NCBI GenBank assembly: GCA_043228905.1
Contig: JBHGNT010000008.1
Span: forward strand, 15,190,001 to 15,254,000
Length of the DNA: 64,000 bases
DNA from: Azolla caroliniana
Taxonomy: Eukaryota > Plantae > Polypodiophyta
Reading direction: 5' to 3'
Translations under genes and position numbers: made by a program
The notes under the pieces: model-generated
The model's database searches: none
What the model was told of the DNA's origin: nothing
What the model saw: the letters and a program-made list of their open reading frames with translations, nothing else
Part shown: positions 19,901 to 53,000 of the stretch, one piece after another
Numbering within the stretch: the stretch's first letter is position 1
Layout of the letters: each line of letters begins with the position of its first letter

Positions 19901-20600
19901 AAGGTAGCATGAGAGAGAAGGGAGAGCTACGCCATAGTTGTGTGTGTAACAGCAGATGCAAAGAGCCCTGTGCGGTTGATACACTTGACAGAGTGTTGTA
20001 ATCATCTCTGTATTGTATATCCACTATACTATAGTGAAGAATCTGTTCACCCGTAGTTTTTTCCCGTTTTAGGGTTTCCACGTAAATCTCTGTGCATTGT
20101 TGTGTGTCTTGTTTTTTTTCTAGCATTTCTGTGATTCGTATTTTATCACGTAGTTTGTTTATTGTGATCTATTCCGCATCGATTTCTCAACACATGCTTA
20201 TGTTGTACCTAATGACATGATATAGAAGATCTCCCCACCGTCACTGCTTTCTTGCCCAAAACCATCCCTCTGTAGTTCCTCAACTGAATGGTTGTACTAC
20301 ACATAACAATCATCCCCCAACATGGACATCTCTGTTCTCAATTGGCTCACGTATCAATGGAATGACCATGTTGGCCAATGAGGAGGGCGCAACTAAAAAA
20401 CTCCTTCATAGCTGTACAAATACTCCACACCATTTTTGAAAGTGAAGAAGGTTCAACACCACTTCTAGAGTTTAAGTGGTTAGTGTGATCATGATAAACA
20501 ATGTGGACTATATCATTAGGTTTATTGGGGATGTTCAAGGGGTGTTTTTGTAGACATAAACTGGCACAACGAGCTCCAAGGCACAAGATGACATTGTGAA
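14000..20600 (-). pseudogene. Very decayed gypsy integrase/chromodomain end with PPT and LTR start, interrupted by copia-2
   Basis: Minus strand GGGGGGAG-TGTAACCCC at 14318-14302 (PPT followed by LTR start). Integrase-like remnants at 14320-14812 and 20198-20600. Confidence 0.45.
14813..20192 (+). mobile_element. Full-length decayed Ty1/copia element (Tnt1/Tork-like); copia-2
   Basis: LTRs 14813-15482 and 19583-20192, TSD CATGC, degenerate Met PBS 15486-15497, PPT GAAGGGGGAG 19571-19580. Gag from 15511, CFYCGKPRH knuckle, WVIDSGAS protease, integrase, RT (QLDVKTTFLHG, YVDDM) and RNase H (STTEAEY), with many stops. Confidence 0.96.
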
Positions 20601-24063: not shown

Positions 24064-25581
24064 CTACAACTTATATAGCTCAATGACACTAAATTCATTT
24101 ATCTTGGATTTTACTTCAAGACGAGCAAAACCAACACTTTTAGCAAGATTCTCAACCTCTTCTTGGGTTCGTTCTCTACCTCCAATGGTTTGGGTAAACA
24201 TATAAAGATCCAAATGGTAACCAACACGAGCTCTCAAGTCCCGTTCGATACCCATCGGCAATATTGCATCAATTATAATGACTTTTCCATTATTCAATAA
24301 TGCCTTGTAGCAATTCTCTAATATCTTCATGCAATGTTCGTCGCTCCAATCGTGCAAAACCGTCTATGCAATGTTAAATCTTGTTAGTTTTGTGCAAAGT
24401 CATTTAGACATAAAAGAATAATAAACTTATATGAATTTATTGGTACCAATAAATTTGTTAAATTTTAGATTGTCAGTGCATATATAGTTGAGCTAAGCGC
24501 AAATAATGACATTCTAATTGTATATTTTATTCAAAATATATTGTTGGATGCATTCTCATTATTTGGGTTTTGTTAACAATGCATGAGACTATACATATTA
24601 ATTAATACGGAAGGGATTTGAACCTTCATGAAAATTGCATCAGCTTGAGGTATTTCAATAAACATGTCACCTCCCACATGCTCGATTCCTTATATCAAAA
24701 AATAGTAAAATGAAATATATCAAAATTACTTATTTTTTAGTCTTCACGAACATTTCAAATTCATTATGTATATCAAACAATAGATGTGCTTGCCATAATT
24801 GCATACCTGAATAATTTGGGGCTAGAGAAATGACATGTGGTTGGTCAAAGTTTATACCACGAATGTGGGGAAAGCGAGAGATGATCAAATGAAGTGATGA
24901 TCCATGGCCACCACCAACATCAACGAGTATATTTATATCATCGAAACACGTGGGATAAGAGTCGAGGAGGTCACGAATGGGGATAGTGCTACCATTGGCC
25001 ATAGCAGTGTTGAAGATGGAACCAAAGTGTGGATCATGTTGGCCATATTCAAAAACATCTAGACCATCGTGGGCCTTGGCGAAGGGTTGGCCACCATCAA
25101 GAACAGCCTCATGTAAGACATGCCAAGATTTAATAGTAACAGGGTCTACACAGAGTCGCAGTAGTGGTGCCAAAGAGGATCCATTCTAGACAAAATATTG
25201 GCTAACTAAGTTAAGACCATATCTTCTTGTTGGGTGCTTAGTGAAGGGATCAAGACCAATGTCCGCATGAACAACACCATGACTAGTCACCACTCTCAAA
25301 AGTCTATCTAATGCTACGGAAACTCTTATATTGGCATCTGGTACGACACTACTACTCATTCGTGACACTATTTCTTCGACTGAATATAACCCTCGTTCCA
25401 TACCCTCCTCCTTTTCTATATCTGCATTTGCCATGACATCAAAGACTTTCAATTTTATGAGTGTGTTAATGGCCATGGGCAAACAACACAATAAGCTCAA
25501 TTCTACTCCCCTCAACCATGCTTCATTTTCCACTTCCTCACCCATCACCCCAAGCATCGACTCATTAACAATGTCACCCAT
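24064..25581 (-). pseudogene. Class II plant O-methyltransferase (COMT-like), three exons, single in-frame TAG at codon 132
   Basis: Exons 25581-24807, 24688-24624 and 24363-24064, joined by GT-AG introns into 1140 nt. Motifs LVDVGGGHG, GINFDQPHVI, EHVGGDMF, DAIFMK, catalytic-His LHDW and GGRERT. Stop at 25188-25186 with the frame continuing beyond it. Confidence 0.92.
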
Positions 25582-25586
25582 CCTCA

Positions 25587-25621
<35 letters not shown>

Positions 25622-25927
25622 CCTCTCTAGATCTGTCTATCCCTCTCTGTTCTAGGTGACTTTCTTATATAGCCTCATCATAGGGTATTTGTCTTGTCAT
25701 ATGATATAGACTTTCATATATAATCACAAGAAACAAGATTGAGAAGAAAACCAGAAAAGTAAAACTGAGCACGCTACTACCAAACAATCAATTTCTATGT
25801 CAAGTAGGCCCAAATGAATGTAATGCTTTTGTCTTTCCTTTTTTAAATGCTAAACGACCAATTTCTATCTGAATTCCTATGCAACGTAACATGTCACACA
25901 ATAGATTCACTGCACAGAAGATAAATG

Positions 25928-26718
25928 AAACACACATTAGCGTGCACATTTCTACCAAAAGAGAGAGCCAGTAATCTGCTGCAGAAGACATAGTATCAAC
26001 CAAAGCGCCTCAAAATTGTGGCTCTTAAGAGTGTCAAAACGGAGCACAGACCAACGCGAGGTTGAGAAGGAAAACCACAAACTCATACATGATTACTTAA
26101 ATTTGGAATATATTTCTTCGATGACAGGCAGAAAATTTGGAATATATTTTCTCGATCGTAGGATTATACAATGTGTGTGTATATGTGTGTTTCGTTGACA
26201 AGCGTCGGAAAAATGTAGGGAGTTTGCATCAAGAACAACCTCATGTAAGACATGCCAAGATTTAATAGTAACAGGGTCTACAGAGAGTCGAAGTAGTGGT
26301 GCCAAAGAGGATCCATTGTGAACAAAATATTGGCTAACTAAATTAAGACCATACCTTCTCGTTGGGTGCTTAGTGAAGGGATCATGACCAATGTCCGCAT
26401 GAACAACACCATGACTAGCCACCACTCTCAAAAGTCTATCTAATGATACGGAAACTCTTATATTGGCATCTGGTACGACACTACTACTCATTCGTGACAC
26501 TATTTCTTCGACTGAATATAACCCTCATTCCATACCCTCCTCCTTTTCTATATCTGCATTTGCCATCACATCAAAGATGTTCAATTTTATGAGTGTGTTA
26601 ATTGCCATGGGCAAACAACACAATAAGCTCAATTCTACTCCCCTCAACCATGCTTCATTTTCCACTCCCTCACCCATCACCCCAAGCATCGACTCATTAA
26701 CAATGTCACCCATCCTCA

Positions 26719-26751
<33 letters not shown>

Positions 26752-28042
26752 GGTCTGTCTATCCCTCTCTATTCTAGGTGACTTTCTTATATAGCCTCAT
26801 CATAGGGTAGTTGTCTTGTCATATGATATAGACTTTCATATATAATCACAAGAAACAAGATTGAGAAGAAAACCAGAAAAGGAAAACTGAGCATGCTACT
26901 GCCAAACAATCAATTTTTATGTCAAGTAGGCCCAAATGAATGTAATGCTTTTGTCTTTCCTTTTTTAAATGCTAAACGACCAATTTCTATCTGAATTCCT
27001 ATGCAACGTAACATGTCACACAAGAGATTCACTGCACAGAAGATCAATGAAACACACATTAGCGTGCACATTTCTACCAAAAGAGAGAGCCAGTAATCTA
27101 CTGCAGAAGACATAGTATCAACCAAAGCGCCTCAAAATGTGTGTGTATGTGTGTTTCGTTGACAAGAGTCGGAAAAATGTAGGGAGTTTGCATCCTACTG
27201 TGCAAAAGAGGAAAGTGTACATAAAGAGAGTCTAGATGGATGTAGCTTAATTGCTAAGGTTGCACAATGGAGACCTGAGGGTTATGGGTTCAACCCTTAC
27301 AATCTAGAGTGGCATCTACTAAATTAAGACTGAAGTGATATCTATGGAGTAATAGAGAGGTAAGCAAATTGGCTTTCGAATCTAAGACTTCGTGTACATT
27401 AATAGTGGAGTGCACCAAAAAACAACAAGGGGGGAGGAGGACATAATGGGTTTGCCATTTGGATTGGTTCGAAGACAAGTTTTTTTTTGTTTTGTTTTGG
27501 GAGGGTTTTGCCATAAGTTTTGGTTTGCTTTGGTTTGCTTGGAGTTTGGTAAGTCGTCAAAGATTTAGAAAGCAAACAAAAATTACCGAAAAAGTGAAGA
27601 GAGAGGGAGAGAGAGAGAGAGAGAGACATGTTCCAAAGATCATACAGATTGGGATGTAAATCTAGCAGATCGGGTTTCGAACTGAAGACATAGTGCACAC
27701 TAATAGTGGAGGGCAACAAAAAATAACAAGGGGGGGAGGAGGACATAATGTGTTTGCCATTTGGATTGGTTCGAAGCGAAGCTTTTTTTTTGTTTTGTTT
27801 TGGGGGGGTTTTGCCATGAGTCTTGATTTGATTTGCTTTGCTTGGAGTTTGGTAAGACGTCAAAGATTTAGAAAGCAAACAACAATTACCGAAAAAGTGG
27901 AGAGCGAGGGAGGGAGAGAGAGAGAAACATGTTCCAAAGATCATACAACTTGGGATGTATGTGCATGTGTCTTATCTCTCTAGAAAGCACGAGGTCCCCA
28001 AAACTGTTGCTTTCTATACACACACACCCACACACCACACAT

Positions 28043-28095
<53 letters not shown>

Positions 28096-28491
28096 ATTGT
28101 ATTGTGCAAAAGAGGAAAGTGTACATAGAGATAGTCCAGATGGATGTAGCTCAATTGGTAAGGTTGCCCAATGGAGACCCAAGGGCTATGAGTTGAACCT
28201 TTACAATCAAGAGTGGCATGTAGTAAATTTAGACTCAAGAGATAAGTAGGGAGTAACAGAGAGGTAAGCAAATCGGGTATCGAACCTAAGACATAGTGCA
28301 CACTAATAATGGAGAGCAACAAAAAACAACAAGGGGGGGAGGAGTACATAATGTGTTTGCCATTTGGATTGGTTCGAAGAGAAGCTTTTGTTTTGCGGGG
28401 GTTTTGCCATGAGTCTTTATTTGATTTGCTTTGCTTGGAGTTTGGTAAGACATCAAAGATTTAGAAAGAAAACAAAAATCACCGAAAAAGT

Positions 28492-28547
<56 letters not shown>

Positions 28548-29209
28548 GTGTTCCAAAGATCTTCTAGATAGGGATGTATGTGTGTGTGTCTTATCTCTCT
28601 AGAAAGCACGAGGTCCTCAAAACTCCTCCTTTCTATACAGACACACACACACACCACATGCAGAGAGAGAGAGAGTTTGAATTGTATTGTGCAAAAGAGG
28701 AAAGTGTACATAGAGATAGTCCAGATGGATGTAGCTCAATTGGACAGGTTGCCCAATGGAGACCCAAGGGTTATGTGTTGAGCCCTTACAATCAAGAGTG
28801 GCATCTAGTAAATTTAGACTCAAGAGATATGTAAGAAGTAACAGAGAGGTAAGCAAATCAGGTTTCGAACCTAAGACATAGTGCACACTATAATAGTGGA
28901 GAGCAACAAAAAACAATAAGGGGGGGAGCAGGACATAATGCGTTTGCCATTTGGATTGGTTCGAAGAGAAGCTTTTTTTTTGTTTTGTTTTGAGGGGGTT
29001 TGCCATGAGTCTTGATTTAATTTGGTCAAAGATTTCGAAAGCAAACAAAATCACTGAAAAAGTGAACACAGAGAGAGAGAGAGAGAGAGAGAAACATGTT
29101 CCAAAGATCGTACACGTTGGGATGTATGTGTGTGTCCTATCTCTTTAAAAATCATGAGGTCCCCAAAACTCCTGCTTTCTATATATACAGACACACCCAC
29201 ACACCACAC

Positions 29210-29255
<46 letters not shown>

Positions 29256-30207
29256 TGCAACCAAACAAAGGAAGTGCACAATCTAAAATATATCGATTTT
29301 CAGAAAAATAAAGAATGCATGTGTAAAGTACATACATACATATAACATATATACTTGGTTTGCGATGTTCGTTGGTGTGTTGTGCTCATTTCTTCTTCTT
29401 CTTATTAAAACAAAACAAAACGAAAAAAATAAAAATGAAGAAGAAGATCACTTAAACACACATTAGCTTGCACATTTCTACCAAAAGAGAGAGGTAGTAA
29501 TGTGCTACCGAAGACATAACATCAACTAAAGCACCTCAAAACTGTGGCTCTTAAGAGTGTCAAAACCAAGCACAAACAAATGCGAGGTTGAGAAGGAAGG
29601 CAACAAACTCAGACATGATTGCTTAAAGTTGGAATATATTTCTTCGATGACAGGCAGAAAAATTGGAACATGTTTTTTCAATGGCAAGCTTATGCAAACT
29701 GTGTGTGTGTGTGTGTGTGTGTTTCGTTGACAAACGTCGGAAAAATATAGGGAGTTGGCACTATACTATGCAAAAGAGGAAAGTGTACATAGAGAGAGTT
29801 CGGATGGATGTAGCATTTAGTAAATTAAGACGGAAGAGATATCTATGGAGTAACAGAAAGGTAAGCAAATTGGGTTTCAAACCTAAGACATAGGGCACAC
29901 TAATATTGGAGAGCAACAAAAAACAGTAAGGGGTGGAGGAGGACGTAATGGGTTTGCCATTTGGATTGGTTTGAAGAGAAACTTTTTTTTGTTTTGTTTT
30001 GGGGGGGGGTTGCCATGAGTCTTGATTTGCTTTACTTTGCTTGGAATTTGCTAAGATGTCAAAGATTTTAAAAACAAACAAAAAACACCCAAAAATGGAA
30101 GAGAGAGAGAGAGAAAGAGAGATGCCCCCAAAATTCCTGCTTATCTCTCTAGAAATCACAAGGTCCCCAAAAATCCTGCTTTTTATACACACACACACAC
30201 CCCACAC

Positions 30208-30256
<49 letters not shown>

Positions 30257-30382
30257 CAAAGTGCAACCAAACAAAGTGCACAATCTAAAGTATATCAAAT
30301 TTCAGAGAAATAAAGAAAATAACAAAAACAAAAATGAAGAATAAGAAGAAAAAGAAGATCACTGAAACACACATTAGCTTGC
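25928..30382. repeat. Complex tandem repeat (~0.55-0.9-kb units) with (GA)n and (CA)n tracts; resumes at 40823-41616
   Basis: Blocks AAAAGAGGAAAGTGTACAT, GCCATTTGGATTGGTT and AAACACACATTAGC recur at about 27205, 28108, 28693, 29772 and 41075. Confidence 0.88.
26227..26713 (-). pseudogene. Truncated tandem duplicate of the OMT exon-1 5' part (with upstream region to ~27190)
   Basis: Near-identical to 25095-25581 at offset 1132. Own nonsense codon TGA at 26527-26525 (CGA in copy 1). Breaks off at a CATC microhomology. Confidence 0.93.
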
Positions 30383-30739
30383 GAATAAAAGTATGCGAGT
30401 GGAAACACTATTATAACTAATCAGCTAGTAAAATGGTCATAGCTATCTAGTTTTTTGTGGGCAAATCATAAGGGTCATTTATGAAATTTTATGCTTTATT
30501 AGTTAAATACATGTCATTTAATTTATGAGAATGCTCAAAATTTTGAACTTTGCGGCTTAGGCATAGAGGACAAAACTGCTACTCTATTGGTACCCTTATG
30601 ACCATGCCACGACACATACCATATCGTTTGTTTTCAATATGCCTGTCACATTGCTATAGTCTGTTTGGGGGATTGCAATATAGCTCTCCTAGATGAGTGA
30701 AGAAAACTTATAGGTAAAATTGTTGCTTGGCTCTATAGT

Positions 30740-33265
30740 GTAGTAGCTAATTAGTTACATCTTAGCTAATTAGCTAAGCCGTATAAATTGTGGTAGCTAC
30801 TTAGTTGTTATGGTTCAGTAGTGTAGTAGCTAATTAGCTACAACCTAGGTATTAGCTAATTAGCCAAGATGTAAATAATTAGCTACTGCAAATCTATGGT
30901 TTAATAGCTAATTAGCTACTGCAAATCTATAGTCTAACAACTAATTAGCTATAGTGTAGCTAATTAGCTAAGCAGTATCAAAAGTGGTAGTTAATTAGCT
31001 ACTGCCATAGTTAAGAAGAATAGCTAATTAGCTACTATCATAATTAAGTAGAAAAGCTAATTAGCTACAACATCCTATAGTATAGTAGCGAATTAGCTAC
31101 TACCACACTTAAGTAGAATAGCTAATTAGCTTCGATGTAGCTAATTAGCTACTGCCAATCTAGAGTCAACATCTAATTAGCTAGCAATATCAAGAGTGGT
31201 AGCTAATTAGCTACTGCCATAATTAAGAAGAATAACTAATTAGCTAAGTTGTAGCTAATTAGTTACTCCCAATCTATAGTCTATAAGCTAATTAGCTAAG
31301 ATGTAGCTAATTAGGTAAACAATATCAAGAACGGTAGCTAATTAGCTCCTACCATACTTAACTAGCTAATTAGCTAAGATACAATAGCTAATTAGCTACT
31401 GAAGCCATAGTTAAGAAGAATAGCTAATTAGCTATTAAAGCCATAGTTAAGAAGAATAGCTAATTAGCTACTATCATAATTAACTAGAAAAGCTAATTAG
31501 CTACAACATCCTATAGTATAACAACGAATTAGCTACAATGTAGCTAATTAGCTAAGTGGTAGCTAATTAGCTACTACTACACTTAAGGAGAATAGCTAAT
31601 TAGCTACTGCCAATCTAGAGTGAACAACTAATTAGTTAGCAGTATCAAGAGTGGTAGCTAATTTGCTACTACCATAGTTAAGAAGAATAGCTAATTAGCT
31701 AAGTTGTAGCTAATTAGTTACTCCCAATCTATAGTCTATAAGCTAATTAGCTAAACAATATCAAGAATGGTAGCTAATTAGCTCCTACCATACTTAACTA
31801 GCTAATTAGCTAAGATACAATAGCTAATTAGCTACTACAGCCTATACTGTAGCAACTAATTAGCTACAATGTATTGAATTAGCTAAGTGGTAGCTAATTA
31901 GCTCCTACCATACTTAACTAGCTAATTAGCTAAGATACAATAGCTAATTAGCTACTACAGCCTATACTGTAGCAACTAATTAGCTACAATGTATTGAATT
32001 AGCTAAGTGATAGCTAATTAGGTATTGCCATAGTTAGGAAGAATAGCTAATTAGCTAAGATGTAGCAAATTAGCTAAGTGGTACCTAATTAGGTACTGCC
32101 AACCTATAGTCTAGTAGCTAATTAGCTAAGAAGTATCAAGAGTGGTAGCTAATTAGCTATTTCCATAGTTAGGAAAAATAGCTAATTAGCTAAGTGGTAG
32201 CTAATTAGCTACTGCCAACCTATAGTCTAGCAGCTAATTAGCTAAGATGTAGCCAATTAGTTAAGTGGTAGCTAATTAGCTACTACCAACCTATAGTCTA
32301 GTAACTAATTAGCTAAGATGTAGCTAATTAGCTAAGTGGTAGCTAATTAGCTATTGCCAACCTATCGTCTAGCAACTAATTAGCTAAGATATAACTAATT
32401 AGGTAAGTGGTAACTATTTAGCTACTACCAGTCTATAGTTTAGCAGCTAATTAGGTAAACAATATCAAGAGTGGTAGCTAATTAGTTACTACTATAGTTG
32501 GAAGAATAGCTAATTAGCTAAGTTGCAGCTAACTAGCTAAGTGGTAGCTAATTAGCTACTGCCAGCCTATAGTCTCGCAGCTAATTAGCTACTGCCATAG
32601 CTGGAAGAATAGCTAATTAGCTAAGATGTCGCTAACTAGCTAAGTAGTAGCTAATTAGCTACTGTCAACCTATAGTCTAGCAACTAATTAGCTAAGATGT
32701 ACCTAATTAGCTAAGTGGTAGCTAATTAGCTACTCCGAGCCTATAAACTAGTGACTAATTAGCTAAACAGTATCAAGAGTGGTAGCTAATTAGCTACTAC
32801 CATAGTTGGAAGAATAACTAATTAGCTAAGTTGTAGTTAACTAGCTAAGTGGTAACTAATTAGCTACTACCAACCTATACTCTAGCAGGTAATTAGCTAC
32901 TACCATAGTTGGAAGAATAACTAATTAGCTAAGTTGTCGCTAACTAGCTAAGTGGTAGCTAATTAACTACTGCCAATTAGCTATGACGTAGGTAATTAGC
33001 TAAGTGGTAGCTAATTAGCTACTTCCAACTTATAGTCTAACAGCTAATTAGTTATGAAGTAGCTAATTAGTTAAGCATTATCAAGAGTGATAGGTAATTA
33101 ACTACTACCATAGTTAAGAACAATAACTATTTAGCTAAGATGTAGCAGTATCGAGGAGTATCAAGAGTGGACGCTAATTACCTACCATGTAGCTAATTAG
33201 CTACCATGTTTAGAATTCAACTAAGGTCATAGAAAAACACAAGAGAAGCCACTAATTAGCTGACA
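30740..33265. repeat. Array 1 of palindrome TAGCTAATTAGCTA with short recurring spacers
   Basis: Roughly 100 copies (estimated, not counted). Spacers include AGATG, AGTGG, CTGCCATAGTTAAGAAGAA and AACAGTATCAAGAGTGG. An exact 120-bp higher-order repeat lies near 31780-32010. Confidence 0.95.
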
Positions 33266-33293
33266 TGTTGTAGAATCTCGTGGATTAAGGAGG

Positions 33294-34900
33294 TTGCATG
33301 AGGTGTCTGGTGCCGATGACGCCATAACTGATGAGGAGATAGTTGGCAACGTGGTTGAAAGTAAGAGTCCTGCTATCACATCTCCTTCAGATCAACTCCA
33401 CCCTATTCTTTTGGAAGATTGTTCTGAATTAGGCAACGTTGTGAAAAGCCATGAAATATTGGAAACAATATGTAAATATGAGGTTCATAACAACACTGTT
33501 TTTGAACACTTGATGCAACATTTCTTTGAATCACAAAACCTTGATTCAAGCCCACTGAGCCCAATTGCTGATGACGTCCCACCAGATCCCACTATACTTG
33601 AAAAGCTATCGCAAGACACAGCTAATGTGCAAGCCGTTGTTGAGGCAATGGAAATGTTGTTGGAGGAGGACACACTTGCGCAATGGATGAAAGAAGCAAG
33701 GCTAAATGGACAACCGACTAGAAAAAGGCTGAAGAAGGGGCCACAATCGGGGGCAAGACCAGTTACTCAATCAAGGGGCTCTTGAATTTGAGCTAATTAC
33801 TACCAATTAGTGATTAGTGGGATATGATTGTTAGCTATTTTCCTAGAAAATTATGAAGATGCCCTATGGTCTATTTGAACAAGTAGCACCTCATATTGGT
33901 TGTTGATTGATCCACATTATGTAATGGAACTCTATGATGGATATTAAGGTAATATTATTATTTTGTTGCAGAACATTTCATGTTCATTATGTTGTTTTGT
34001 GACACTGTTAGCCACTTTGTGAATGTGAATATGTTGGTGTTTTCTGATGTTGCAGAGTCTAAAGGGTTTGAATCTATTGCTCCTAAGGCCGATGGTAGTG
34101 TGGAAACTGTTGATGTTGTTGCATGTTTAGATGATCTAATTTTGCAGGTAGATGGAGCATGTGATACGAGTGGGCTGATATCGACTAGAGAAGTATCTAC
34201 ATGCGACACGGTCGATTATACAAGAACAAAATAGTGTGAAGCCAGACCTAATGACTACACAAGAGCAAAACAAGGTGAAGCCAAACCCAAAGACACAGTC
34301 GACCAGGGATTTGAAGAGGAAAAGGACACCAATTGTGTTGACAGAACCCGAGTTGTTCGAAATTGATTGTGTGCTACTAATACTTGGGGTAAGAGAGGCT
34401 CAGTTGTAGGAATGGAAACCTAAACAATTAGAAGATGAAAGAAGAGTCTTGATCTTGGAGCTTGATAAAGTCCTGATGAGTGTGCGATATATGACACCAA
34501 GGAGGGCCGCGAATCAATTTCTAGAGTGGGTTGTGCAATACTTTGATTTTTTTATTTGGAGTGAAAAACCACGTTCATATGTTTGGAAGTGTGTAGAAAA
34601 ATTCTTTCTAAAGTGACGACAACACTTCAAGGGTCAATGGACACGAGAAAGATGTGAGCAGTAGGATATTGCAAGATTCAAAAGACTTTTTGATTTTTGG
34701 GATATACCTTGCCCGAATAAAATGCCGACAATACATTGATTGTGGATACAGAACATTTCCGGCATTACTACAACCTTCGCAGATGCTGTCTCATTGTACC
34801 TGATGAAATGCCTAATAACTACTTGGTGAAAACATTGAGCTGCCAATTAACTGCATGGTTATGGACACTATATTGAGCTTGGTATGCAAATCACATATGT
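33294..34900 (+). pseudogene. Decayed accessory gene: acidic N-terminal ORF plus FCP1/NIF (HAD-fold) phosphatase-like domain
   Basis: ORF 33294-33785. From 34443: RVLILELDKVLMSV...PRRAANQFLEWVVQYFDFFIWS...YV...WTRERC...FKRLFDFW, then after a frameshift NTLIVDT...N...CLIVP. This follows the FCP1-homology motif order. Joining the segments into one gene is inference. Confidence 0.6.
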
Positions 34901-35389
34901 AGAGAAGTTCCACTGACCACCAAGAGCTTAGCTATTTATAGGCACTTTGTAGACATTGCCAATGGTGTATTATAAATATGTAATTTGATGACTGATTAAT
35001 CAATGAAGAATTAAATCGCTTGTTTTAAGTAAATTATCTAGTAACTATGTAATTTTAAAATAGGTCATAATTTGATTTATGTTTTCATGTTGCTGTTTGT
35101 TCTCAAAATGGCAAATTGTTTGAACTTGTACATGGTTCACTTGAGAGTAAAAAAACCATTGCCAAAATATATTCCATGCAGTATAATCGTCATTATGCAC
35201 ATTGAACAGACACTAAAACTCAAAGTGGCAATAAGTAAAACTGATTGTAATCAATACACATTTAACAAACAGAATTTTATTAAGAAACATAAACAAAAAA
35301 AAACTCCCAAACAATTTAATTAAACTGTTTTTTTGCAATACAACTACTTTGTCCACTTTACAAGAAAACTGGTATGATCTCCTTGTAGC

Positions 35390-35893
35390 TGTTAGGAAAC
35401 AGGTCCCTCCGAATGGGAAGTGAGAAGAACCGTGTTGATAAGCAACTCGGCCGAGGCCAAAACCGGAAATCGTGGAGATAGCCAACACAGAAGGCTAAAC
35501 TTGTAAATAGTCGAAAGGTTACATTAGTATGTAAGTACTTAGGGCAATCATGTTAGATAAGTGCATTATTGTAAAAGCTACCGACGACGAGGTCACTGCC
35601 TTTGTAACTGTGAGAGAAAACGAGTGGGAGTGAAAGCGTGTGAGCTCCATAGCCACCTGTTGGCGAAGCAAGATCTCGAGGTCGTTGCCTCTAAGATCTC
35701 TGATTGTATTCCTTTCTCTCATAGTGTTCTGTTTTGGAGTTTGTGGACTCCACGTGGTTTTTTTCCCAGTTCGGGTTTCCACATTAAAATCTGTGTCATT
35801 CTCAGTTTCTATATTCTATTTTTCCTTTCCATTAGATTGACTATTATTCCGCACACGTACAACCAGTTGTGGCCGGCAACAATTTTAACTTCA
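35390..35893 (+). mobile_element. Copia solo LTR inside the DNA transposon
   Basis: TGTTAGGAAAC...CTTCA with TSD GTAGC (35385-35389 and 35894-35898). Contains the GGTTTTTTCCC...GGGTTTCCAC block shared with the other copia LTRs. Confidence 0.88.
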
Positions 35894-35899
35894 GTAGCT

Positions 35900-38800
35900 A
35901 CAAATTCAATGGCATACTTTTGTAAATACATTCATACACATTAGCACTAACTGTGTATAAATCTGAGCAACTATTGTATTGCAACATCGGGACGTTGATG
36001 CACCTCACCAAATGAGACTACATGTACTCTACTGATTTGTCTTCTAAAAGCCTATACACATAATCATAATAATCTAGTCTTGCATAAAAAATACCTTTGA
36101 TGTAGAATGTCCCGACATATACAAAATTTCCCCAATCATCTACAATATTCTGTGTTGCACATTGTTTACGAACCATGCACTTCAATATATAGAAATCAAC
36201 ACCCTCTGATTTGTCTTCTTCTACATTTACAACGAAATTATTCCCAACGTTTATGACATCACTCAGAGTATCTCCACAACCTTGATATGTGAAGTCAACA
36301 TTGTTTTCTGTTTTTCCATCCGCTCGGTCCTTATCATTCTATGTATGGTACTCCCAATTCTGAATATATGCTTTGTTTAATCAATACCTCCAATTTCCCT
36401 GCACACAACGGAAGCAAAAACAAGTTAATTCTCTAACCGCAATACAATGACCATCCAACCTAGAATAACCCCAAACAACATGGAGAGATCACAATTTGGG
36501 AATTCCTTGGCACTCCCAGGTCTTCTCCCTATTTACTTCATCTATCTTCACTTCCCAAAATTCACGTTTGATATCTTAGACTTGAGAGGAATAAACACTA
36601 GTTGCACTCGTCCCTGCTCCATCATGTTCACCTTTACCATGGCCAGACCCAAAAAGATTCCATCTCATCTCCAAACCTGTTACAGAAGGATACCTCCCAA
36701 CAAAATAAAATGGACATCTAGCCTTTCGTTTATGACGTAGCTCCATTAGACTAGACCCAATATTGAGTAAGCTCCAAACGTTGACATAATAACCATTGCC
36801 AATGTAACTTAAAACAATGTTGGACAAACAAGGTATCATGCTTCTAATCATCAGAAATAAAAAAATGAATTACTTTCTTAACATCATCTGAAACTCGAAA
36901 ATATGTTATGTGCATTGAACACCAACGCATGGATTGAATTTTATTATGCTGCTTGAAAGTATAATTCTCTACGAAATCTCCTACTGAGTCTACTACATCA
37001 TTTGGAAAATCATATTTGCAAGTCTTAAACTGATGGGCTTGCCATGAATAAATGAAGTTGTGTTTAATGAACTTTCCTAGAGATACTATAAATAAAGAAA
37101 CCAAATCCCTTGGTTTAAGTGACTTCCTAACTAGATCCTTTATTTTACACACCTTTCCTTCAAAATTGGTGTCCATAGACTCAAAAACTTGATAGAGATT
37201 AATGTTTCACAACTCAACTCTTTTGGACACCACCTAAATCTACGAGGACCACAATCTTGACATAAACCCATACGACACATTTATGATTGTGGAAGATAGC
37301 CTCAGATTCTCTCAAACACAATACTGAATCTAAAAGACCACTCATGGAAGAGATAACATGCACTATGATTTACAGTGCTCTTGCAGGCTAGATCCACCAA
37401 TTGGCCATTCTCAAGTGCAGACTACATCGTCTAGGGAGGAGCTATTGTGACGTAGTAGATTAACAGATTCCTTGAGAAAACCCATTTGTACATGGTAAAT
37501 GCAACACCAGAGTATTGATCCTTTAAGCGTCTCACAAAGTGTGGCTTAAGAGACTCGAATGTTCGTAGTTGAACTTTGATATTTGGATGCATTCGCTTGA
37601 ACCTAATAAATAAATCAACTTTCGTAATAAAAAGGGAGTCCGGTGAGTATAAAAAATGTGCCCTAATGTAGCTAGTTAGATATAGCTAATTAGCTATTGA
37701 CTATAGCTAATGAGCTACCTCAATAGCTAGCTCTTGACATAGCTCATTAGCTATTGCCAGTAGCCAATTAGCTATTAAGAGTAGCTAATTAGATACTGAC
37801 TGTAGGTAATTAGCTATTAAGAGTAGGTAATTAGCCATTGACTATAGTTAATTAGCTATTAAGAGTAGCTAATTTACAATTGACAATAGCTAATTAGCTA
37901 ATGACATAGCTAGTTAGTTATTGCCAGTAACTAAATAGCTATTGACAATATCTAATTAGCTACCTTAATAATTAGCTAATTAGCTGATAAGTGCTAAGTT
38001 TACTATTGGCAATAGTTAAATAGTTCTTAACAGTAGCTACTTAGTTATGGTTATATTCTGAGGTAGTTAATTAGCTGATAATAACTTAGTTTAGTATTGG
38101 CAATAACTATTTATCTATTACCATTAGCTAGTTAGCTATGGTCATATTCTAAGATAGCTAATTAGCTATTGTGGTAGCTAATTAGTTGCTACACCAGTAA
38201 CTAGTTAGCTATGATCATATTCTGAGGTAGCTAATTAAATACCACAATAGCTAATTAGCTATCTCAAAATATGACCATAGCTAATTAGCTACCACAATAG
38301 CTAATTAGCTACCTTAGAATATGACCATAGCTAATTAGCTACCACAATAGCTAATTAGCTACCTCAGAATATGACCATAGCTAACTCGCTAATGGTAATA
38401 ACTAAATATCTATTGCCAATACTAAACTAAGCTATTATTAGCTAATTCGCTAGTTAGCTATGGTCATATTCTGAGTTAGCTAATTAGCTATTGTGGTAGC
38501 TAATTAGCTGATAATAGCTTAGTTTAGTAATGGCAATAACTATTGAGCTATTACCATTAGCTAGTTAGCTATGGTCATATTCTGAGGTAGCTAATTAGCT
38601 ATTGTGGTAGCTAATTAGCTATGGTCATATTCTGAGATAGCTATTTAGCTATTGTGGTAGCTAATTAACTGCTACACTAGTAACTAGGTAGCTATGCTCA
38701 TATTCTGAGGTAGCTAATTAGCTATTGCGGTAGCTAATTAGCTGATAATAGCTAAGTTTAGTATTGGCAATAACTATTTAGCTATTACCAGTAGCTAGTT

Positions 38801-39400
38801 AGCTATGATCATATTTTTAGGTAGCTAATTAGCTATGGTCATATTCTGAGTTAGCTAATTAGCTATTGTGGTAACTAACTAGGTGATAATAGCTAAGTTA
38901 GGTATTGTCAATCGCTATTTAGCTATTACCAGTAGCTAGTTAGCTATGGTCATATTCTGAGGTAGCTAATTAGCTACTGGTAATAGCTTAATAGATATGG
39001 TTATACTCTGAGATAGCTAATTAGTTGATAATAGTTAAGTTTGCTATTGTCAATCGCTATTGAGCTATTACCAGTAGCTAGTTAGCTATGATCATATTCT
39101 AAGATAGCTAATTAGCTAACTAACTAAGCGTAAAAATCAAAACAAAAGTTGACATAAATGTAAATACCTAAGGTACATCAAGAAGATGAATGGGATATTC
39201 CTCGTATTGACTCGTTCCAACACGTTTCCTACATAAATCCTTCTTATTAGGTGAAATCCTACTCTCATTAGTCCAAAATATGGTGATTATATCCTTGATT
39301 TTTGATGTTATGGGTGTCATTGGCTTACATCTTGTTGTTAGCTTTAGCAAACTAATTCCTTCACCACTTGAAATTATTTGGTTCATTGTATTGTACACAA
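35900..39400 (-). pseudogene. Sola2-like DDD transposase, decayed, with the second palindrome array in a putative intron
   Basis: Ordered motifs SRISPNKKD, FESLKPHFV, CCIYHVQM, HNFIYSWQ, DFVENY...IQSMRW, ISDD..HD, WV*SNG, WNLFGSGHGKGEHDGAG and RELTCFCFRC. Family assignment is from recalled motifs and needs an HMM check. Confidence 0.75.
37665..39125. repeat. Array 2 of palindrome TAGCTAATTAGCTA with a different spacer set and an internal inversion
   Basis: Spacers TTAAGAG, TTGTGG and TGGTCATATTCTGAGG. Segment ~38240-38450 carries the reverse-complement spacers CCACAA and CCTCAGAATATGACCA. Confidence 0.93.
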
Positions 39401-40119
39401 TTTTTCTACTAACACCAATTAGCTTAGACTAGACCTTTTTAAGACAAGATCATCTTTTGACCTGCTCATGGATACGAAACTATTATAGAGATTATTTACT
39501 AGTATAGATGTTATGTTTGCATTAAGATCGTCACAATCAACAAACTCCTTTATCGCTGGATCATTTAATATTCCGTAAAGTACTACCTTCTTGTCTTCAT
39601 TGCTGATGTGCTTGGTCTGAACATTGAAATAGTCTACAACCTATCTCTCTATGATAGTAGTCTCATTACTTCCATTCTCAGTGGTATTTAGACCTATATC
39701 GCAACCAATGCTATGCTTACTTTTAGTGAATGTGGCGTTTGTATCCTTCAACAATGGACAATGTTTCCTTTTTTTTTATGCCCAATACTTTCGTATCGCT
39801 TGTTGTAACCTGATAGCGTCATCCCTATCCTGGTGATCCACGAGAGGTATTGGTAAACACCCTCCTTCCCCTTTCATTTGTCTTGACATATTCATTAGTA
39901 AATTTCCACAACCAAAAGACACGTAGCTAGTTACTAAACAACTTGCAAACCAGTTATTCATAGGAGCGATCCCACCGTTGGTAAGTTTATTTTTGTTGCA
40001 GCGGAGTAATAGCTACTCAACTACCATCGGGAACGAGCTAAGATGACTATGGGCAACAACAATACACAAAATTATTCCGCAATACATAGGATAATCAACA
40101 AACGGAATAATTATTGCAA

Positions 40120-40550
40120 TCCAGGGTTGAACAGTGGCGGCGATCTAGGACCGAACAGTGGCAGCAACTGACTATAGAATGGCGGCAGTGGAGGAGTAAA
40201 ATCCGTCGGATCGAACAATGACAGATGATGCTTGGAATGCACAGTGGCGGAAACTGAGTGTAGAATGGTGGCAATGGAGGAGTGAACTCCGTTGGATCGA
40301 ATAGTGGCAACAATCCACGACCGAATAGTAGCGGCAACTGAGTGTAGAATGGCGGCAATGGAGGAGTGAACTCAATAGGAGCGAACAATCGCAGATGATG
40401 CTTGGACCGAACGGTAGCGAGAACTGAGTGTAGAATGGCAGTGATGGAGGAGTGAGCTTCGTTGGATCAAACAATGGCAAATGATGCTTGGATTGCACAA
40501 TGGCGGCAACTGAGTGTATAATAGCGGCAATGGAGGAGTGGACTCAATAG
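40120..40550. repeat. About five ~80-90-bp tandem units near the right end of the DNA transposon
   Basis: ACTGAGTGTAGAATGGCGGCAATGGAGGAGTGAACTC recurs at about 40167, 40253, 40336, 40423 and 40509. Minus-strand reading gives a repeated FTPPLPPFYTQ peptide. Confidence 0.85.
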
Positions 40551-41616
40551 GGTTTAGGAACAATGGAAGTAATCTAAGCTTGGATAGTAACAACGTGATG
40601 TGCCAATGGATCATGCATAATGGACCTAGGAATTCGGTATATAATTGACGGTGCACATATACATTTATGGTGCACGTTTATGGTGCTCATTTATATAATT
40701 AAAATATTCTAACGTTTTCATTCATGGTGCAAAAATGACTATTTATCATTGGTAGTTTTTTACATAGCTAATTAGCTATGTCAAGGACATAACTAATTGT
40801 TTCCACTTGCATGCTTTCACCTTTGCACGTTTCTATCGAAAGAGAGAGGCAGTAATTTGTTGCAGATGCCATAGCATCAACTAAAGTGCCTCAAAATTGT
40901 GGCTTTTAAGAGCGTCAAAATTGTGGCTCAGACAAACGCGAGGTTGAGAAGGAAAACCACAAACTCAGACATGATTACTTAAAGTTGGAATATATTTCTT
41001 CGATGCCTTGCAAAAAAATTGGAACATGTTTTTTCGATGGTAGGATTAAACAAAGTGTGTGTGTGTGTGTGTGCAAAAGAGGAAAGTGTACATAGAGACA
41101 GTTCGAATGGATGTAGCTCAATTGGTTAGCTTGCCAAATGGAGACCCGAGGGTTATGGGTTATGTGTTGAACCCTTACACTCAAGAGTGGCATCTAGTAA
41201 ATTAAGACTCTAGAGATATCGATGGAATAACAAAGAGGTAAGCAAATCGGGTTTCGAACCTAAGACATAGTGCACACTAATATTGGAGAGCAACAAAAAA
41301 CAATAAGCGAGGGAGGAAGACGTAATGGGTTTGCCATTGGGATTGGTTCAAAGAGAATCTCTTTCTTGTTTTGCTTTGGCGGGATTTTTGCCATGAGTCT
41401 TGATTTGATTTTCGTTGCTTGGAGTTTGGTAAGACGTTAAAGATTTAAAAAGCAAACAAAAGTCACTGAAAAAGTGAAGAAAGAGGGAGAGAGATAGAGA
41501 GAGATAGAGATAGATAGATAGAGAGATAGAGAGATAGAGAGAGAGCCAAAGTGCAACCAAACAAAGGAAGTGCACAATCTAAAATATATCAATTTTCAAA
41601 TAAATAAAGAATGCGT

Positions 41617-48300: not shown

Positions 48301-48473
48301 TACGTGACGAATCTGGCGCTGCTTCATTTACTCCTTCCATGTAGCTCCAGTATCTATGCCCCAGCAAGCACTGATGCATTTTATACAACCAGGACGCATA
48401 GTTGCTCCAGTCGAGCTTTTATGTAGAAAGCAAGCTCGCCATGCTTCTGTCCATATCCTTTCTTTTCGGTCTG

Positions 48474-48550
48474 TGTCATGAGATGGCAAGACTCGAACCC
48501 ATGACCTTATGGTATATGGGTCGAGCTCTTAACCATCTCACCATCTATTG
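48474..48550 (-). promoter_or_regulatory. tRNA-like Pol III A/B-box module at the LTR outer end (also 1901-1977 and 53622-53698)
   Basis: Minus strand reads TGGTGAGATGG (TAGTCTAATGG in element A) ... AGGTC-ATGGGTTCGAGTC with tRNA-like spacing. Confidence 0.65.
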
Positions 48551-48904
48551 TAATTCATAGAATATTATTTTCATTTATGTTTTATTATAAGAAAGTAATG
48601 TATATTCCAGATTTCTCTGGAACATTCTAGAAGCTTCAGGATTATTCCTGAGAACACTATAAAAGAAGGCACTAAGCATTATGTTGAACCAAATTGGTTC
48701 AACACCAGTCTTAAGCCTCTTAGTCGATTTGTACTTATCTTTCATATAATATAAGAGCTGCTGTCATCATCCTATCTCTCTCTCTCTCTCCTCTTCTCAC
48801 TTCCTCTCTCTCGGGAATCTTACGCAGTCCCGTCCTCTTAGTACTAATAGTACTACTCTTCTTAGTACTAATTCCATCTCTGTTTTAGTACTATTCCTGA
48901 CAGT

Positions 48905-50041
48905 TTGAACCAATCCGTTTTCTCCGAGCTACAGTGCCTAAAAGAAAAGTTTGTTGCCTTGGAACAAGAAAACCAACGGCTGATAGGGGATCTGCAACAA
49001 ATCGCTCTAGAAAAACAACAAACGCAACAACAACATGGGGAGTTAGCGTTACGGGTACAACAACTCGAAGCAGCGTTGCAACAACAAGGATCCAGTCCCC
49101 AAGGATTTCATAAAGAGCCCAAGATTGGACTTCCTGTGAAATTTGATGGAACGCGTTCGCAATTTCGGGGATTCCTTAATCAGGTACGCTTAGTCATCCA
49201 GATGCATCCTTCCCGATATCCCACTGATGCATCTCGAGTCGGCCTAATAGGCACGCTACTTAGCGGCTCAGCCTTGGCATGGTTCGCTCCGCTTCTAGAA
49301 AAACAATCGCCCCTGCTTAATAACTTTGAAGATTTTATTGGTGAGTTTAAAGCCTGCTTTGGAGACACCGACAGCATCAGGACGGCGATCAACAAGATCC
49401 GGCGATTGCGTCAAGGCGATCGTCCAGCCTCTGCCTACGCGGCGGATTTCCGCCTACTTGCTTCAGATATACCCTGGGATGATCAAGCACTAATGGAGCA
49501 GTTTCGCTATGGCTTGCGAAACGATGTCAAAGATCTACTTCTAACTTTCCCCGAAGAACCAAAGTCTCTTACGGAGGCAATCAGTCGAGCAGTTCGATGT
49601 GACAACCGCCTTTTTGAACGGCGTTCAGAACGTCAATTACAGATACCACGCTCTAGGCCAGAGCCCACTTACGCCGCAGTCGCGGCTAAACCGTTTGCAC
49701 GAGACATACCTCAAGCAAATACTTCGACACCGATGGAGATCGATACCATGCGTCGACGCGGCCCGTTATCGGAAGAAGAAAAGCAACGACGACGTGCCAA
49801 TCGATTATGCCTTTATTGCGGTGGACCAGGACATATCGCCATCAATTGTCCCCATAGGCCAAGAAGACAGGTAAATCAAATTGTCGCCTGTACTAAACCT
49901 GAGTCAATTCTTCCCTTCGGAGTGTCTGATAGTAGTAATAGTACTAATAGAGTGTCAGATAGTATTCATAGTACTAATAGCCCAAGTATCTCAAATAAAT
50001 TTGAAATCCTTAGTCAATTAGATGAAGAGTTAAACGATTGA
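48905..50041 (+). CDS. gag: Gag (coiled-coil N-terminus, capsid, CCHC knuckle); start codon uncertain
   Basis: KFDG...F...SALAWF, LRQG, QFRYGL, PMEID and CLYCGGPGHIAINCP. First in-frame ATG is only at 49202. Confidence 0.93.
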   Translation: MNQSVFSELQCLKEKFVALEQENQRLIGDLQQIALEKQQTQQQHGELALRVQQLEAALQQQGSSPQGFHKEPKIGLPVKFDGTRSQFRGFLNQVRLVIQMHPSRYPTDASRVGLIGTLLSGSALAWFAPLLEKQSPLLNNFEDFIGEFKACFGDTDSIRTAINKIRRLRQGDRPASAYAADFRLLASDIPWDDQALMEQFRYGLRNDVKDLLLTFPEEPKSLTEAISRAVRCDNRLFERRSERQLQIPRSRPEPTYAAVAAKPFARDIPQANTSTPMEIDTMRRRGPLSEEEKQRRRANRLCLYCGGPGHIAINCPHRPRRQVNQIVACTKPESILPFGVSDSSNSTNRVSDSIHSTNSPSISNKFEILSQLDEELND

Positions 50042-50084
50042 GTCCAGCCAAAATAGGAGCCATTTGGTTGGACAGCAGCCCTAG
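50029..50084 (+). promoter_or_regulatory. -1 programmed ribosomal frameshift signal
   Basis: G TTA AAC at 50029-50035 in gag phase, 6-nt spacer, then an 11-bp stem (50042-50052 with 50063-50073). The pol frame opens only at 50026. Confidence 0.8.
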
Positions 50085-53000
50085 ATCTGTACAGCCCATT
50101 AGTGGTTCCATTCCTTCCAAGCAAGTTAGCAATGTGTTCCTAGCCCAAGTCATTGTTAGTACTAAAAGTACTCCCCCAGTACCCGTCCTAGCACTTTTAG
50201 ATTCCGGAGCTAATTCCTGTTTCATGGATCGAAATTTTGCCCAAGCTTCTCAGATATCCTTAAGAAAACTTCCTTGTCCCGCATCTGTAGTGGTCATTGA
50301 TGGTCGTCCCATTGCTTCCGGGAATATTGTAGAAGAATCAGAACCCATTCAAGTTGTCCTAGGTAGTTTTGTGTGTATAATATCATTTAATATAATTAGT
50401 AGTCCAGAGCATCCCATTGTCCTAGGATTACCTTGGCTTGAGTTACATAATCCAGCCATAGATTGGAGAACAAGAGAAGTCCGATATCGACCACCCCAAG
50501 AATCAACTCGCCGAGTTTCGACCATTTCACTCCATCAACTACGCGAAGAAGGACCCAAGGAGGAAATGTTCCTATTTTCCATATCAGTACATCCTTCCAG
50601 CACTATTAAGAAGGACTCCTCAGTACAACTTCCGGCAAAATATCATCCTTATGCCGATGTATTTGACAAGGTAAAAGCCGGTACCCTTCCTCATCACCGT
50701 CCCTATGACTGTCCCATCGATTTACAACCAGGAACCGAGCCACCATGGGGACCAATTTACAACCTGTCACCCACCGAGTTAGAAGTCCTTCGAGCCTACA
50801 TAGAGGAGAACTTGGCAAGCGGGTTCATCCGTCATTCGAAATCTCCGGCCGGTGCACCCATCTTCTTTGTCAAGAAGAAAGATGGCTCACTTCGTCTTGT
50901 CGTTGATTACCGCGGATTAAATAAAGTCACCATCCGGAATAGGTATGCACTTCCTCTTATATCAAGTCTTTTAGAGCGAGTTAATGGTGCCAAGTTTTTT
51001 ACTAAAATCGACCTACGCGGAGCGTATAATCTCGTGCGGATCCGACCGGGAGATGAGTGGAAGACCGCTTTTCGCACGCGGTATGGGCATTTTGAGTATA
51101 CTGTTATGCCGTTTGGCCTAACCAATGCACCCGCAGTCTTCCAACACATGGCAAATGATATATTCAGAGACCTCTTGGATATCTGTTTGATCATTTATCT
51201 GGATGATCTGTTGATTTATTCGAAGACCCAGGAAGAGCACGACTCTCATGTACTATTAGTACTAAAGCGACTCCGCGAGAATGGTCTTTATGCCAAGCTA
51301 GAAAAATGTAGCTTTGACTGCAAGCAAGTGGAATTTCTAGGCTACGTCATCTCCTCAAAGGGCATCGCCATGGATCCAGCTAAGATCCAAACTGTACTAG
51401 AGTGGCAAATTCCACGGTCGGTACGAGATGTACAATGTTTTCTAGGTTTTGCTAACTTCTACCGTAAGTTTATACAGGATTACTCGAAGATTATTTTACC
51501 TCTCACACAACTTACGAAGAAGGGCCAAGCATTTCTTTGGTCCATTGAAGCAGATATGGCTTTTCGGCATCTTAAGAAAGCCTTTACATCAGCACCGATT
51601 CTAGCTCATGTGGATACAAGCAAACCATTCATCATGGAGGCCGACGCATCAGATTTCGCCCTCGGTAGCATCCTTTCTCAACAAGGTGATAAAGAAGAGT
51701 TGCATCCGGTGGCTTTCCATTCGCGCAAATTCGATGTCGCAGAAATCAACTACGAAATACATGACAAGGAGTTATTAGCCATCGTGGATTCATTTGTACA
51801 ATGGCGGCATTTCTTAGAGGGCTCTCCACATCAGGTCATTGTCTTCAGCGATCATAAAAATCTTGCTTATTTTCAGAACGCTCGCGTACTAAATCGACGG
51901 CAAGCTCGGTGGGCGCAATTCCTCATGCGTTTCGACTTTAAAATCACATATCGACCGGGGAAGCAGCAAGGAAAAGCAGATGCACTATCACGACGTTCAT
52001 ATCTTGCACCTCGTCCTGGTGAAGCAACATTTGATAATCAAAAGCAAGTAATCTTGGGACCAACACGATTGCACACGACGCGGATTTTTCACACCCCGAT
52101 GGATTCACGGATTACCGATGACATACGTGCAACCTTGAAGACGGATAGTTTTGCTCAAGACATCCTGGCGCACATTGATACTTCTCGGGCATCCTGTTCT
52201 CAGTCTCAACAACCAGGTATTGACTACCGACAATTCGAATATCATGATGGTTTGTTATTCTTTAAAAAGCACGTATATGTCCCCGATTGCTCCTGTCGCC
52301 TTCAAATTGTCCAACATTGTCACGACACCCATACGGCGGGACATTTCGGTAGTACTAAGACGTTGGAGCTAGTGCAGCGATCTTTTTGGTGGCCCCACAT
52401 GCGCCGTTTTGTCGACGACTACGTTCGGACCTGTGATGCTTGCTGCCGAGCAAAAATGCCACGACACCATCCATATGGCTTGTTGGAACCTTTACCAATT
52501 CCAAGTAAGCCATGGCAGTCTATTTGTCTTGATTTTATCACAGATCTGCCGGTCTCGAAAGGGTTCGATGCTATCCTAACCGTCGTCGATCGATATACGA
52601 AGATGGCACATTTTGTGCCATGTACTAAAGCTATCACTAGCGAGGAAACCGCCGCTCTTGTTATGCGTGAGGTTTTTCGGCATCATGGCCTCCCAGACAG
52701 TATTATCAGTGACCGAGGCCCGCAATTTGTCTCCAAATTTTGGCAGCATCTCTTCAAGATGCTCAAGGTCTCCTGCAACCTCTCCTCCGGCTACCATCCT
52801 CAAACCGACGGACAGGCGGAACGAACAAACCAAACGCTGGAGCAATATCTCCGGTGCTTCCTGAGTTATCAACAGGACGATTGGGCCGAGATTCTCCACT
52901 TTGCGGAGTTTGCGTATAATAATGCTATTCACTCCTCGACTCGGGTCTCCCCATTTTTCGCTTATACCGGTTTCCATCCTCGCTGGTCGGTGATCGACAC

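Follow-up and report, generated by a model that had tools for sequence, protein, structure and literature searches.

Few anti-silencing or regulatory factors encoded by transposons have been demonstrated experimentally (VANC and TnpA), and those in the papers cited here come from flowering plants. VANC recognizes tandem motifs that are specific to a family and lie in introns and at termini, and both binding and demethylation have been shown by experiment (PMC5735166), while TnpA needs dense motif clusters (bioRxiv 10.64898/2026.08.24.746577). The element described here, a possible counterpart in seed-free plants, occupies positions 30383-40822 of a 64,000-nucleotide stretch (referred to as the window) of the water fern Azolla caroliniana (assembly GCA_043228905.1, contig JBHGNT010000008.1, positions 15,190,001 to 15,254,000). 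It represents a real, new form of the Sola2 transposons, in which a transposase gene converges with a multidomain accessory gene that encodes an unclassified conserved domain, and both genes carry introns with arrays of a palindrome of the TAGCTAATTAGCTA type. Sola2 elements have target site duplications (TSDs) of 4 bp (PMC3627910, PMC10741241). The first-pass annotation of the window regarded them as elements with a single open reading frame (ORF), a generalization contradicted by the Fanzor1 cargo of amoebozoan Sola2 elements (PMC3627910), and suggested that a plant Sola2 lineage might be undescribed. As a class, Sola has already been reported in moss (Sola1), in ferns including Azolla and Ceratopteris, and in Capsicum (PMC10741241, PMC9033089, PMC6786969, PMC6890710); Azolla is described as SOLA-rich, and active Sola clusters were rare in a survey of 1007 genomes (PMC12973397). 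In the excerpts concerned, the plant reports give class labels or counts only, with no subgroup anatomy, accessory gene, or arrays, and no paper on a plant Sola2 with such an accessory gene or arrays was found in a search that had subscription journals and Repbase reports outside its range.

The favored reading, with a probability of roughly 0.45, is that the accessory protein is a sequence-specific regulator of the VANC/TnpA kind, non-homologous to VANC, that would keep the element transcribable. Its basic N-terminal domain (N-domain), dimerized by a coiled coil, would read the element's own palindrome, so that binding to the intronic arrays could sustain transcription against host methylation; a RING-H2-like finger and a catalytically degenerate FCP1/SCP-fold domain (NIF) may target the machinery of silencing or of transcription where the element is bound; and the arrays could grow by slippage and conversion inside introns, at no coding cost. 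The proposal takes its cue from VANC and TnpA, for which the same traits are reported: a conserved protein, a private motif, amplification within introns, and family-to-family turnover.

A recently amplified Sola2 family

The window element is 10,440 bp long, with TTGC on either side and 25-bp terminal inverted repeats (TIRs), each of which has 3 mismatches to the nearer family TIR, and a paralogous empty site carries only one TTGC (29468-29471); the ends, the TSD, and the empty site had all been recognized in the first-pass annotation. In the 523-Mb genome, a degenerate TIR pattern found 781 matches, compared with 1 for a reversed control, and the first 100 matches listed contained 31 pairs (contigs C1-C3) spanning 4,980-28,540 bp, mostly 9-12 kb. 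Twenty-six paired copies were compared, comprising 24 fetched pairs chosen for near-perfect TIRs and 2 older copies; 10 older copies were taken by DNA similarity, 8 of which had no TIR pair inside the 20 kb fetched. A 4-bp TSD flanks 25 of the 26 paired copies (26 of 27 with the window element) and a 5-bp match flanks none, which rules out TSDs of 3 or 5 bp. The TSDs vary (24 different 4-mers among 26; 73% AT), which also rules out Kolobok, whose insertion is TTAA-specific.

Both genes are near full length in 17 of the 26 paired copies, both arrays are present in 24, and every one of the 26 retains one or both arrays together with all or part of accessory exons 1-3; the earlier proposal that a convergent second gene and the arrays share one pair of ends with the transposase is thereby upheld in other copies, and the refuting outcomes named in the first-pass annotation did not arise. 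The 18 young copies have a median identity of 99.4% (96.9-99.9%) and 65 of the best-scored 76 transposase matches (of 1611 candidates) are free of stops, which points to recent amplification. The family is thus an abundant, recently amplified cut-and-paste transposon, cut-and-paste transposition by a Sola2 enzyme following from established knowledge. The window copy, 88.5% identical to the young copies and 89-92% to older ones, is an old, dead member. Its damage comprises stops, frameshifts, a ~103-bp deletion after HGKGEHDG, and a mutated splice acceptor (AG>AA) at transposase exon 2, as well as a ~2-kb deletion at about 30549/30550 that removed accessory exons 1-4, which encode the N-domain and the coiled coil, along with the first part of exon 5. 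Its C>T changes affect 34 of 158 CG, 39 of 215 CHG, and 45 of 1140 CHH sites; a load at CG and CHG far above that at CHH is expected after methylation, and the pattern indicates that the host methylates the family.

The intact transposase is encoded in two exons (about 250 and 613 aa) with one of the arrays in between. All the motifs named in the first-pass annotation are found on the minus strand of the window, in broken frames. The three catalytic residues of exon 2 (D215, D298, and D339) are invariant among 43 homologues, and no MULE match was found in Pfam; exon 1 of intact copies matches the helix-turn-helix (HTH) family HTH_11 below the cut-off (E 6.5e-5). The ratio of nonsynonymous to synonymous substitution rates (dN/dS) between the old and young subfamily consensus is 0.04-0.44. 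The element ends read GGG; the first-pass annotation named GRG termini as characteristic of Sola2. The TIR length is within the 11-1124 bp range of Sola (PMC10741241). Seven motif patterns from the Repbase Sola2 alignment (PMC3627910, Additional file 10) all occur in the transposase, the order of motifs is shared as SPNKK/GKK, CxCxYH, a Cys cluster, DFAENY, QxEIQSxHW, ISDDxxH, SDGxxxQFK, and WxFFxxHGKxxxDG, and the D-82-D-40-D spacing, counted by eye, is that of Sola2-5_HM. Motifs, spacing, and TSD thus support the assignment to Sola2 made in the first-pass annotation. Named homologues come from Ceratodon, Calypogeia, Cryptomeria, and Taxus and, more distantly, from animals. In a midpoint-rooted tree of 90 catalytic cores, which contains no named Sola references, a single clade (100/97) holds 74 rows including all named plant rows, and the clade of the Azolla family is sister to the one that holds Ceratodon; the tree excludes duplicates, unnamed proteins P0001-P0098, and rows in which <150 aa of the core are covered, among them both Adiantum hits.

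The accessory gene

Alignment of the copies yields a seven-exon gene with GT..AG introns, whose frame either ends in exon 6 (isoform A, 618 aa, open in 7 of 26 copies) or is spliced on to the NIF exon (isoform B, 807-820 aa, open in 4 of 26). Contigs from three runs of one study, whose status as RNA is a guess, skip exactly introns 1-3 (96, 335, and 78 nt; GT..AG) in a copy about 95% alike. The transposase/NIF stretch had no RNA dataset on record, and four runs mapped on it gave partial cover with no exon 6-7 joint, uninformative for splicing. The protein consists of the ~140-aa N-domain, a coiled coil, the RING-H2-like finger, and then either an acidic tail or the FCP1/SCP-fold domain.

The N-domain has 139 relatives, 18 alignment columns with >50% Lys or Arg, and a predicted model of high confidence (predicted local distance difference test score [pLDDT] 94). 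Fold searches with this model gave no match (Foldseek against PDB, best E 2.0; VIA-align wide, best Z 2.6; viral library, best E 2.9), which does not prove that the predicted fold is new, and a PDB sequence search with alignment A2 returned coiled-coil matches only. A likeness to the dynamin GED among Atlas hits of a longer query (0.94-0.95, low recognition, <170 shared features) was gone with the N-domain alone (0.85), and a link to PMD/DUF1985 hinted at by a "VxWA" motif was unsupported by Pfam. The finger retains all eight ligands of the C-x2-C..C-x-H-x2-H-x2-C..C-x2-C pattern, the last pair spaced x3-4, and is a predicted ubiquitin ligase; it matches Pfam zf-RING_2 below the cut-off (E 0.01-0.02; 0.023 on intact exon 5). 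Accessory intron 2 of young copies (L043:810-1285) contains a run of ATTAGGGTTT-type repeats, variable in length and expanded in the young subfamily, which resemble plant telo-boxes.

The first-pass annotation had called the gene phosphatase-like, a label that holds for the fold of one domain but fits neither the multidomain, seven-exon gene nor the active site. The NIF domain of an intact copy matches Pfam above the cut-off (E 2.5e-7; that of the window copy gives E 1.1e-4), and its model (pLDDT 80) matches CTDNEP1 (Foldseek E 2e-7), TIM50 (1.5e-6), and SCP1 (6e-5). The catalytic motif of FCP1/SCP phosphatases is DxDx(T/V), and none of the 11 aligned NIF sequences covering the site has both Asp residues (ELD, DLN, NLN, and NLD are found instead). 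Within the larger protein, it is probably a pseudo-phosphatase domain, predicted to bind phosphopeptides or proteins.

RING and NIF are common host domains, and with its catalytic motif lost the second gene might be passively carried host cargo (a Pack-type capture) of no use to the element; the dN/dS of exon 6 (0.43-0.52), not significantly below 1, would agree with this. The other regions, compared between the old and young subfamily consensus, have dN/dS values of 0.14 (N-domain; p 5e-9), 0.18 (coiled coil), 0.29 (RING exon), and 0.36 (NIF), which indicates purifying selection on all four. Furthermore, the convergent position is conserved across the moss-clade and fern-side lineages described below, and the best 60 of 1119 own-genome matches to an Adiantum protein are near-identical in score, have the family's N-domain/RING exon spacing, and include no distinct host gene. 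Passive cargo is therefore very improbable, being largely refuted by dN/dS and deep conservation.

Palindrome arrays

The two arrays cover 3.9 kb, close to the ~4 kb of the first-pass annotation, to which their intronic position adds a correction, and hold 135 of the 137 motif sites of the window element; no core 12-mer is found in the 64-kb window beyond the element. Genome-wide there are 3,134 exact double sites, the first 50 of which (contig C1) fall in 7 loci, all TIR-bearing elements, which rules out an independent satellite or a nested miniature inverted-repeat transposable element. Near both TIRs there are further sites, single or paired; the left one is at position 32 in each of the 26 other copies examined, of which one was read in the opposite sense. 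Young copies have such sites between the 3' ends of the convergent genes as well. The core motif is common to the old and young subfamilies, which differ in spacers and period (19/33 versus 20 bp), and array length varies severalfold among 99%-identical copies. In L043 (6265-6800), a ~255-bp unit with two palindrome sites lies between the converging 3' ends and is repeated 1-4 times in young copies. In one further copy (L035+L036, C6:12771952-12785873), array 2 carries the type of spacer and the 19/33-bp period otherwise characteristic of array 1, which suggests copying between the two arrays of one element.

The arrays could instead be binding sites of the transposase, serving end recognition, synapsis, or self-activation, with the accessory protein acting as a MURB- or Harbinger-Myb-like transposition cofactor, bound to the transposase or to the target instead of to the arrays. 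The distance from the motif to the element end is indeed only 31 bp on the left and 44 bp on the right, exon 1 of the transposase encodes an HTH, and cis sites might be needed, given that the 31 TIR pairs of C1-C3 all span at least 4,980 bp and that no fetched pair among the 26 lacks both arrays. There is also precedent, as the AtMu1 transposase itself activates cognate copies (according to a published abstract) and MURA binds MURB (PMC12973397). However, most sites are intronic and 2-4 kb from the ends, one related family (L082) combines a closely similar TIR with a different array motif, host proteins are the targets suggested by the RING and NIF domains, and deletion derivatives can keep arrays for a mechanical reason, recombination between them. 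On balance, this explanation appears somewhat unlikely.

Related families and the role of the accessory protein

Among 80 metagenome loci, two families with 45-48% transposase identity carry a convergent NIF frame. Related families have the transposase intron at the same position with other motifs inside: ACCATTAATGG in L082, which has a closely similar TIR to that of the Azolla family, GTGGTAATTAG in L083, AGGTGAAAATTTCACC in L086, AGTACCAA in L087 and L088, and ATGCTAGTTAGCAT in L085 and L089. An own enriched motif exceeds shuffled nulls in 7 of 7 other families of the same clade, with those of L085 and L088 tested on the flanks rather than the whole intron; where sister families share a motif, this reflects descent, not co-evolution. 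Farther away, moss-clade loci encode a convergent gene with an N-domain, a coiled coil, a RING, and an acidic/basic part, and this N-domain is homologous to that of the Azolla family (hhalign probability 94%, score 47.7 versus a shuffled maximum of 17.5). Adiantum contributes nine of 10 N-domain relatives whose identity was checked, among them a protein that unites N-domain, coiled coil, RING, and NIF in a single chain. The gymnosperm-side loci inspected had no accessory gene in the short flanks examined. Gymnosperm-side relatives L114, L117, L119, and L127-L130 have no array intron; short repeats, a part of them palindromes, precede their transposase. In another related locus, L121 (3658-4917), a RING-containing ORF follows a related transposase on the same strand, a differing arrangement.

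The accessory protein might also act in trans to the element's benefit, with no reading of arrays involved, for instance by degrading or sequestering a host silencing factor, in which case the arrays would be tolerated intronic satellites or sites of a host TAATTA factor. The TAATTA cores are homeodomain-type sites, the moss-clade relatives have the gene without large arrays, and the severalfold length variation among near-identical copies would also fit. Yet the core is conserved while spacers turn over, motifs differ by family, which is not favored under a fixed host factor, and one and the same motif is found in both long introns, near the two termini, and between the 3' ends of the convergent genes, making this explanation unlikely.

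Several observations weigh against an array-reading accessory protein. The motif copies beside both TIRs and the HTH of the transposase suit transposase sites. The N-domain matches no Pfam family, DNA-binding families and DUF1985/PMD included, so that its proposed DNA binding is argued from charge and context. No homology to VANC domains was found in the accessory protein: DUF1985 and DUF287 gave no Pfam match in 55 alignment members (E 0.01) or 10 proteins (E 10), remote homology still being possible. The spliced, presumed-RNA contigs depart from the gene model within exon 4, so no full-length transcript is seen among them. Among 25 related loci (30-40% transposase identity) with at least 4 kb downstream, several of them near-duplicates, the N-domain/RING gene is found in 12, always on the opposite strand, 7 of which helped to seed the profiles, and in the other 13 no accessory domain was detected. 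Finally, only 2 of 8 moss-clade introns checked have a motif above the null, and weakly; since the gene is kept in that clade, gene and large arrays are not obligately coupled. With the regulator of the VANC/TnpA kind still preferred, a broader claim may tentatively be made, that an ancient land-plant lineage of Sola2 may possess a private anti-silencing system, separate from those of VANC and TnpA, in which one protein, with a DNA-binding domain whose fold is unclassified fused to a RING ligase and to a mimic of RNA polymerase II C-terminal domain (CTD) phosphatases, would read lineage-specific intronic palindromes.

Features and surroundings of the window copy

Table 1. Coordinates of the element and its parts within the window
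Feature	Position	Strand	Basis
Left TSD, TTGC	30379..30382	none	TSD comparison; empty paralogous site with single TTGC
Left 25-bp TIR, decayed; family form GGGTAAAAGCATGCGAGTGGAAACA	30383..30407	+	TIR comparison across copies
Subterminal array palindrome, left, degenerate here	30414..30427	none	Motif scan
Accessory exon 5 remnant, RING-H2-like finger	30550..30713	+	Alignment with other copies
Accessory intron, GT..AG, phase 1, holds array 1	30714..33273	+	Alignment; splicing predicted
Array 1, TAGCTAATTAGCTA-type, 86 sites, periods 19 and 33 bp; in accessory intron	30744-33203		Motif scan
Accessory exon 6: acidic tail, then basic end resembling a nuclear localization signal, and stop; internal phase-1 donor 33360/33361	33274..33785	+	Alignment
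Accessory exon 7: linker and FCP1/SCP-fold (NIF) domain without DxD (ELDKV); broken here	34056..34975	+	Pfam NIF, fold match
Insertion resembling a solo long terminal repeat (LTR), 504 bp, TG..CA, 5-bp GTAGC duplication	35390..35893	none	Sequence comparison
Transposase exon 2: Cys-rich region, DDD core, C-terminal domain; 613 aa intact	35898..37619	-	Translation, copy alignment
Transposase intron, phase 0, holds array 2	37620..39167	-	Copy alignment; same position in related families
Array 2, TAGCTAATTAGCTA-type, 49 sites; in transposase intron	37669-39126		Motif scan
Transposase exon 1: HTH, SPNKK motif; about 250 aa intact	39168..39889	-	Translation
86-bp tandem repeat, 4.7 copies, upstream of transposase start	40148..40551	none	Repeat search
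Subterminal array palindrome, right	40765..40778	none	Motif scan
Right 25-bp TIR; family form GGGTGAAAGCATGCGAGTGGAAACA	40798..40822	-	TIR comparison across copies
Right TSD, TTGC	40823..40826	none	TSD comparison

The 86-bp tandem repeat has a diverged counterpart, at high coverage, in 25 of 26 other copies, and the 504-bp insertion finds a match in 1 of 26, there partial and at another place. The latter is younger than the element, foreign to the family, and likely a solo LTR; it lies just past the transposase stop, and its first ~126 bp resemble 15019-15143 and 19752-19877, which are parts of a repeat pair (14815-15482/19585-20192). The element was inserted into one unit of a locally duplicated, AG-microsatellite-rich repeat of ~0.3-1 kb (25095-30320 and 40823-41530), whose several copies, 77-96% alike, are the source of the empty site. 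Elsewhere in the window, a young LTR retrotransposon at 48473-54055 (435-bp LTRs 99.8% identical; long ORFs at 48872-50038 and 50026-53607) has a relative at 1-2321, and further LTR-type elements include one at 58445-63799 (634-bp repeats, 90.7% identical, at 58445 and 63167) and nested, decayed relatives at 9542-20192.

Comparison with known systems

The Azolla family would add to VANC and TnpA a third, non-homologous candidate, this one from seed-free plants. If the proposed role is true, modules of a protein plus a private repeat array have been invented repeatedly, and the small DNA-binding domains gain a new member. Should the mechanism prove otherwise, the picture of Sola2 elements is still refined by the conserved pairing of two genes and by the unclassified domain. 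Binding specificity and motif swapping are open to direct testing, since young copies are intact, the candidate site is 14 bp long, and related families have other motifs.

The likeness to VANDAL/VANC modules noted in the first-pass annotation stands as an analogy. Like the VANDAL elements with VANC, the Azolla family combines a transposase and an accessory gene with short, family-specific motifs tandemly amplified in introns and terminal noncoding DNA. VANDAL elements, however, are MULEs, whereas the Azolla family is Sola2 with a 4-bp TSD, and the role of VANC is experimental, whereas that of the Azolla protein is proposed from sequence. The CACTA/Spm system shares an element-encoded factor with dense clusters of family-specific motifs, an association proposed for the Azolla family; TnpA is transposase-derived and acts at the termini, whereas the Azolla accessory protein lacks transposase homology and most of its candidate sites are intronic. 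The Sola2-Fanzor1 elements of Dictyostelium and Polysphondylium (PMC3627910) likewise have a Sola2 transposase, a second gene, short TIRs, and a 4-bp TSD, but their cargo is Fanzor1 and their TSD is AWWT, in contrast to the N-domain/coiled-coil/RING/NIF protein and varied TSDs of the Azolla family. With the Repbase Sola2 elements in general, the Azolla family has in common the motif order, the D-82-D-40-D spacing, the 4-bp TSD, and short TIRs; it differs from them in its size of 10-12 kb, its second gene, its intronic arrays, and its place in a land-plant clade apart from the animal relatives.

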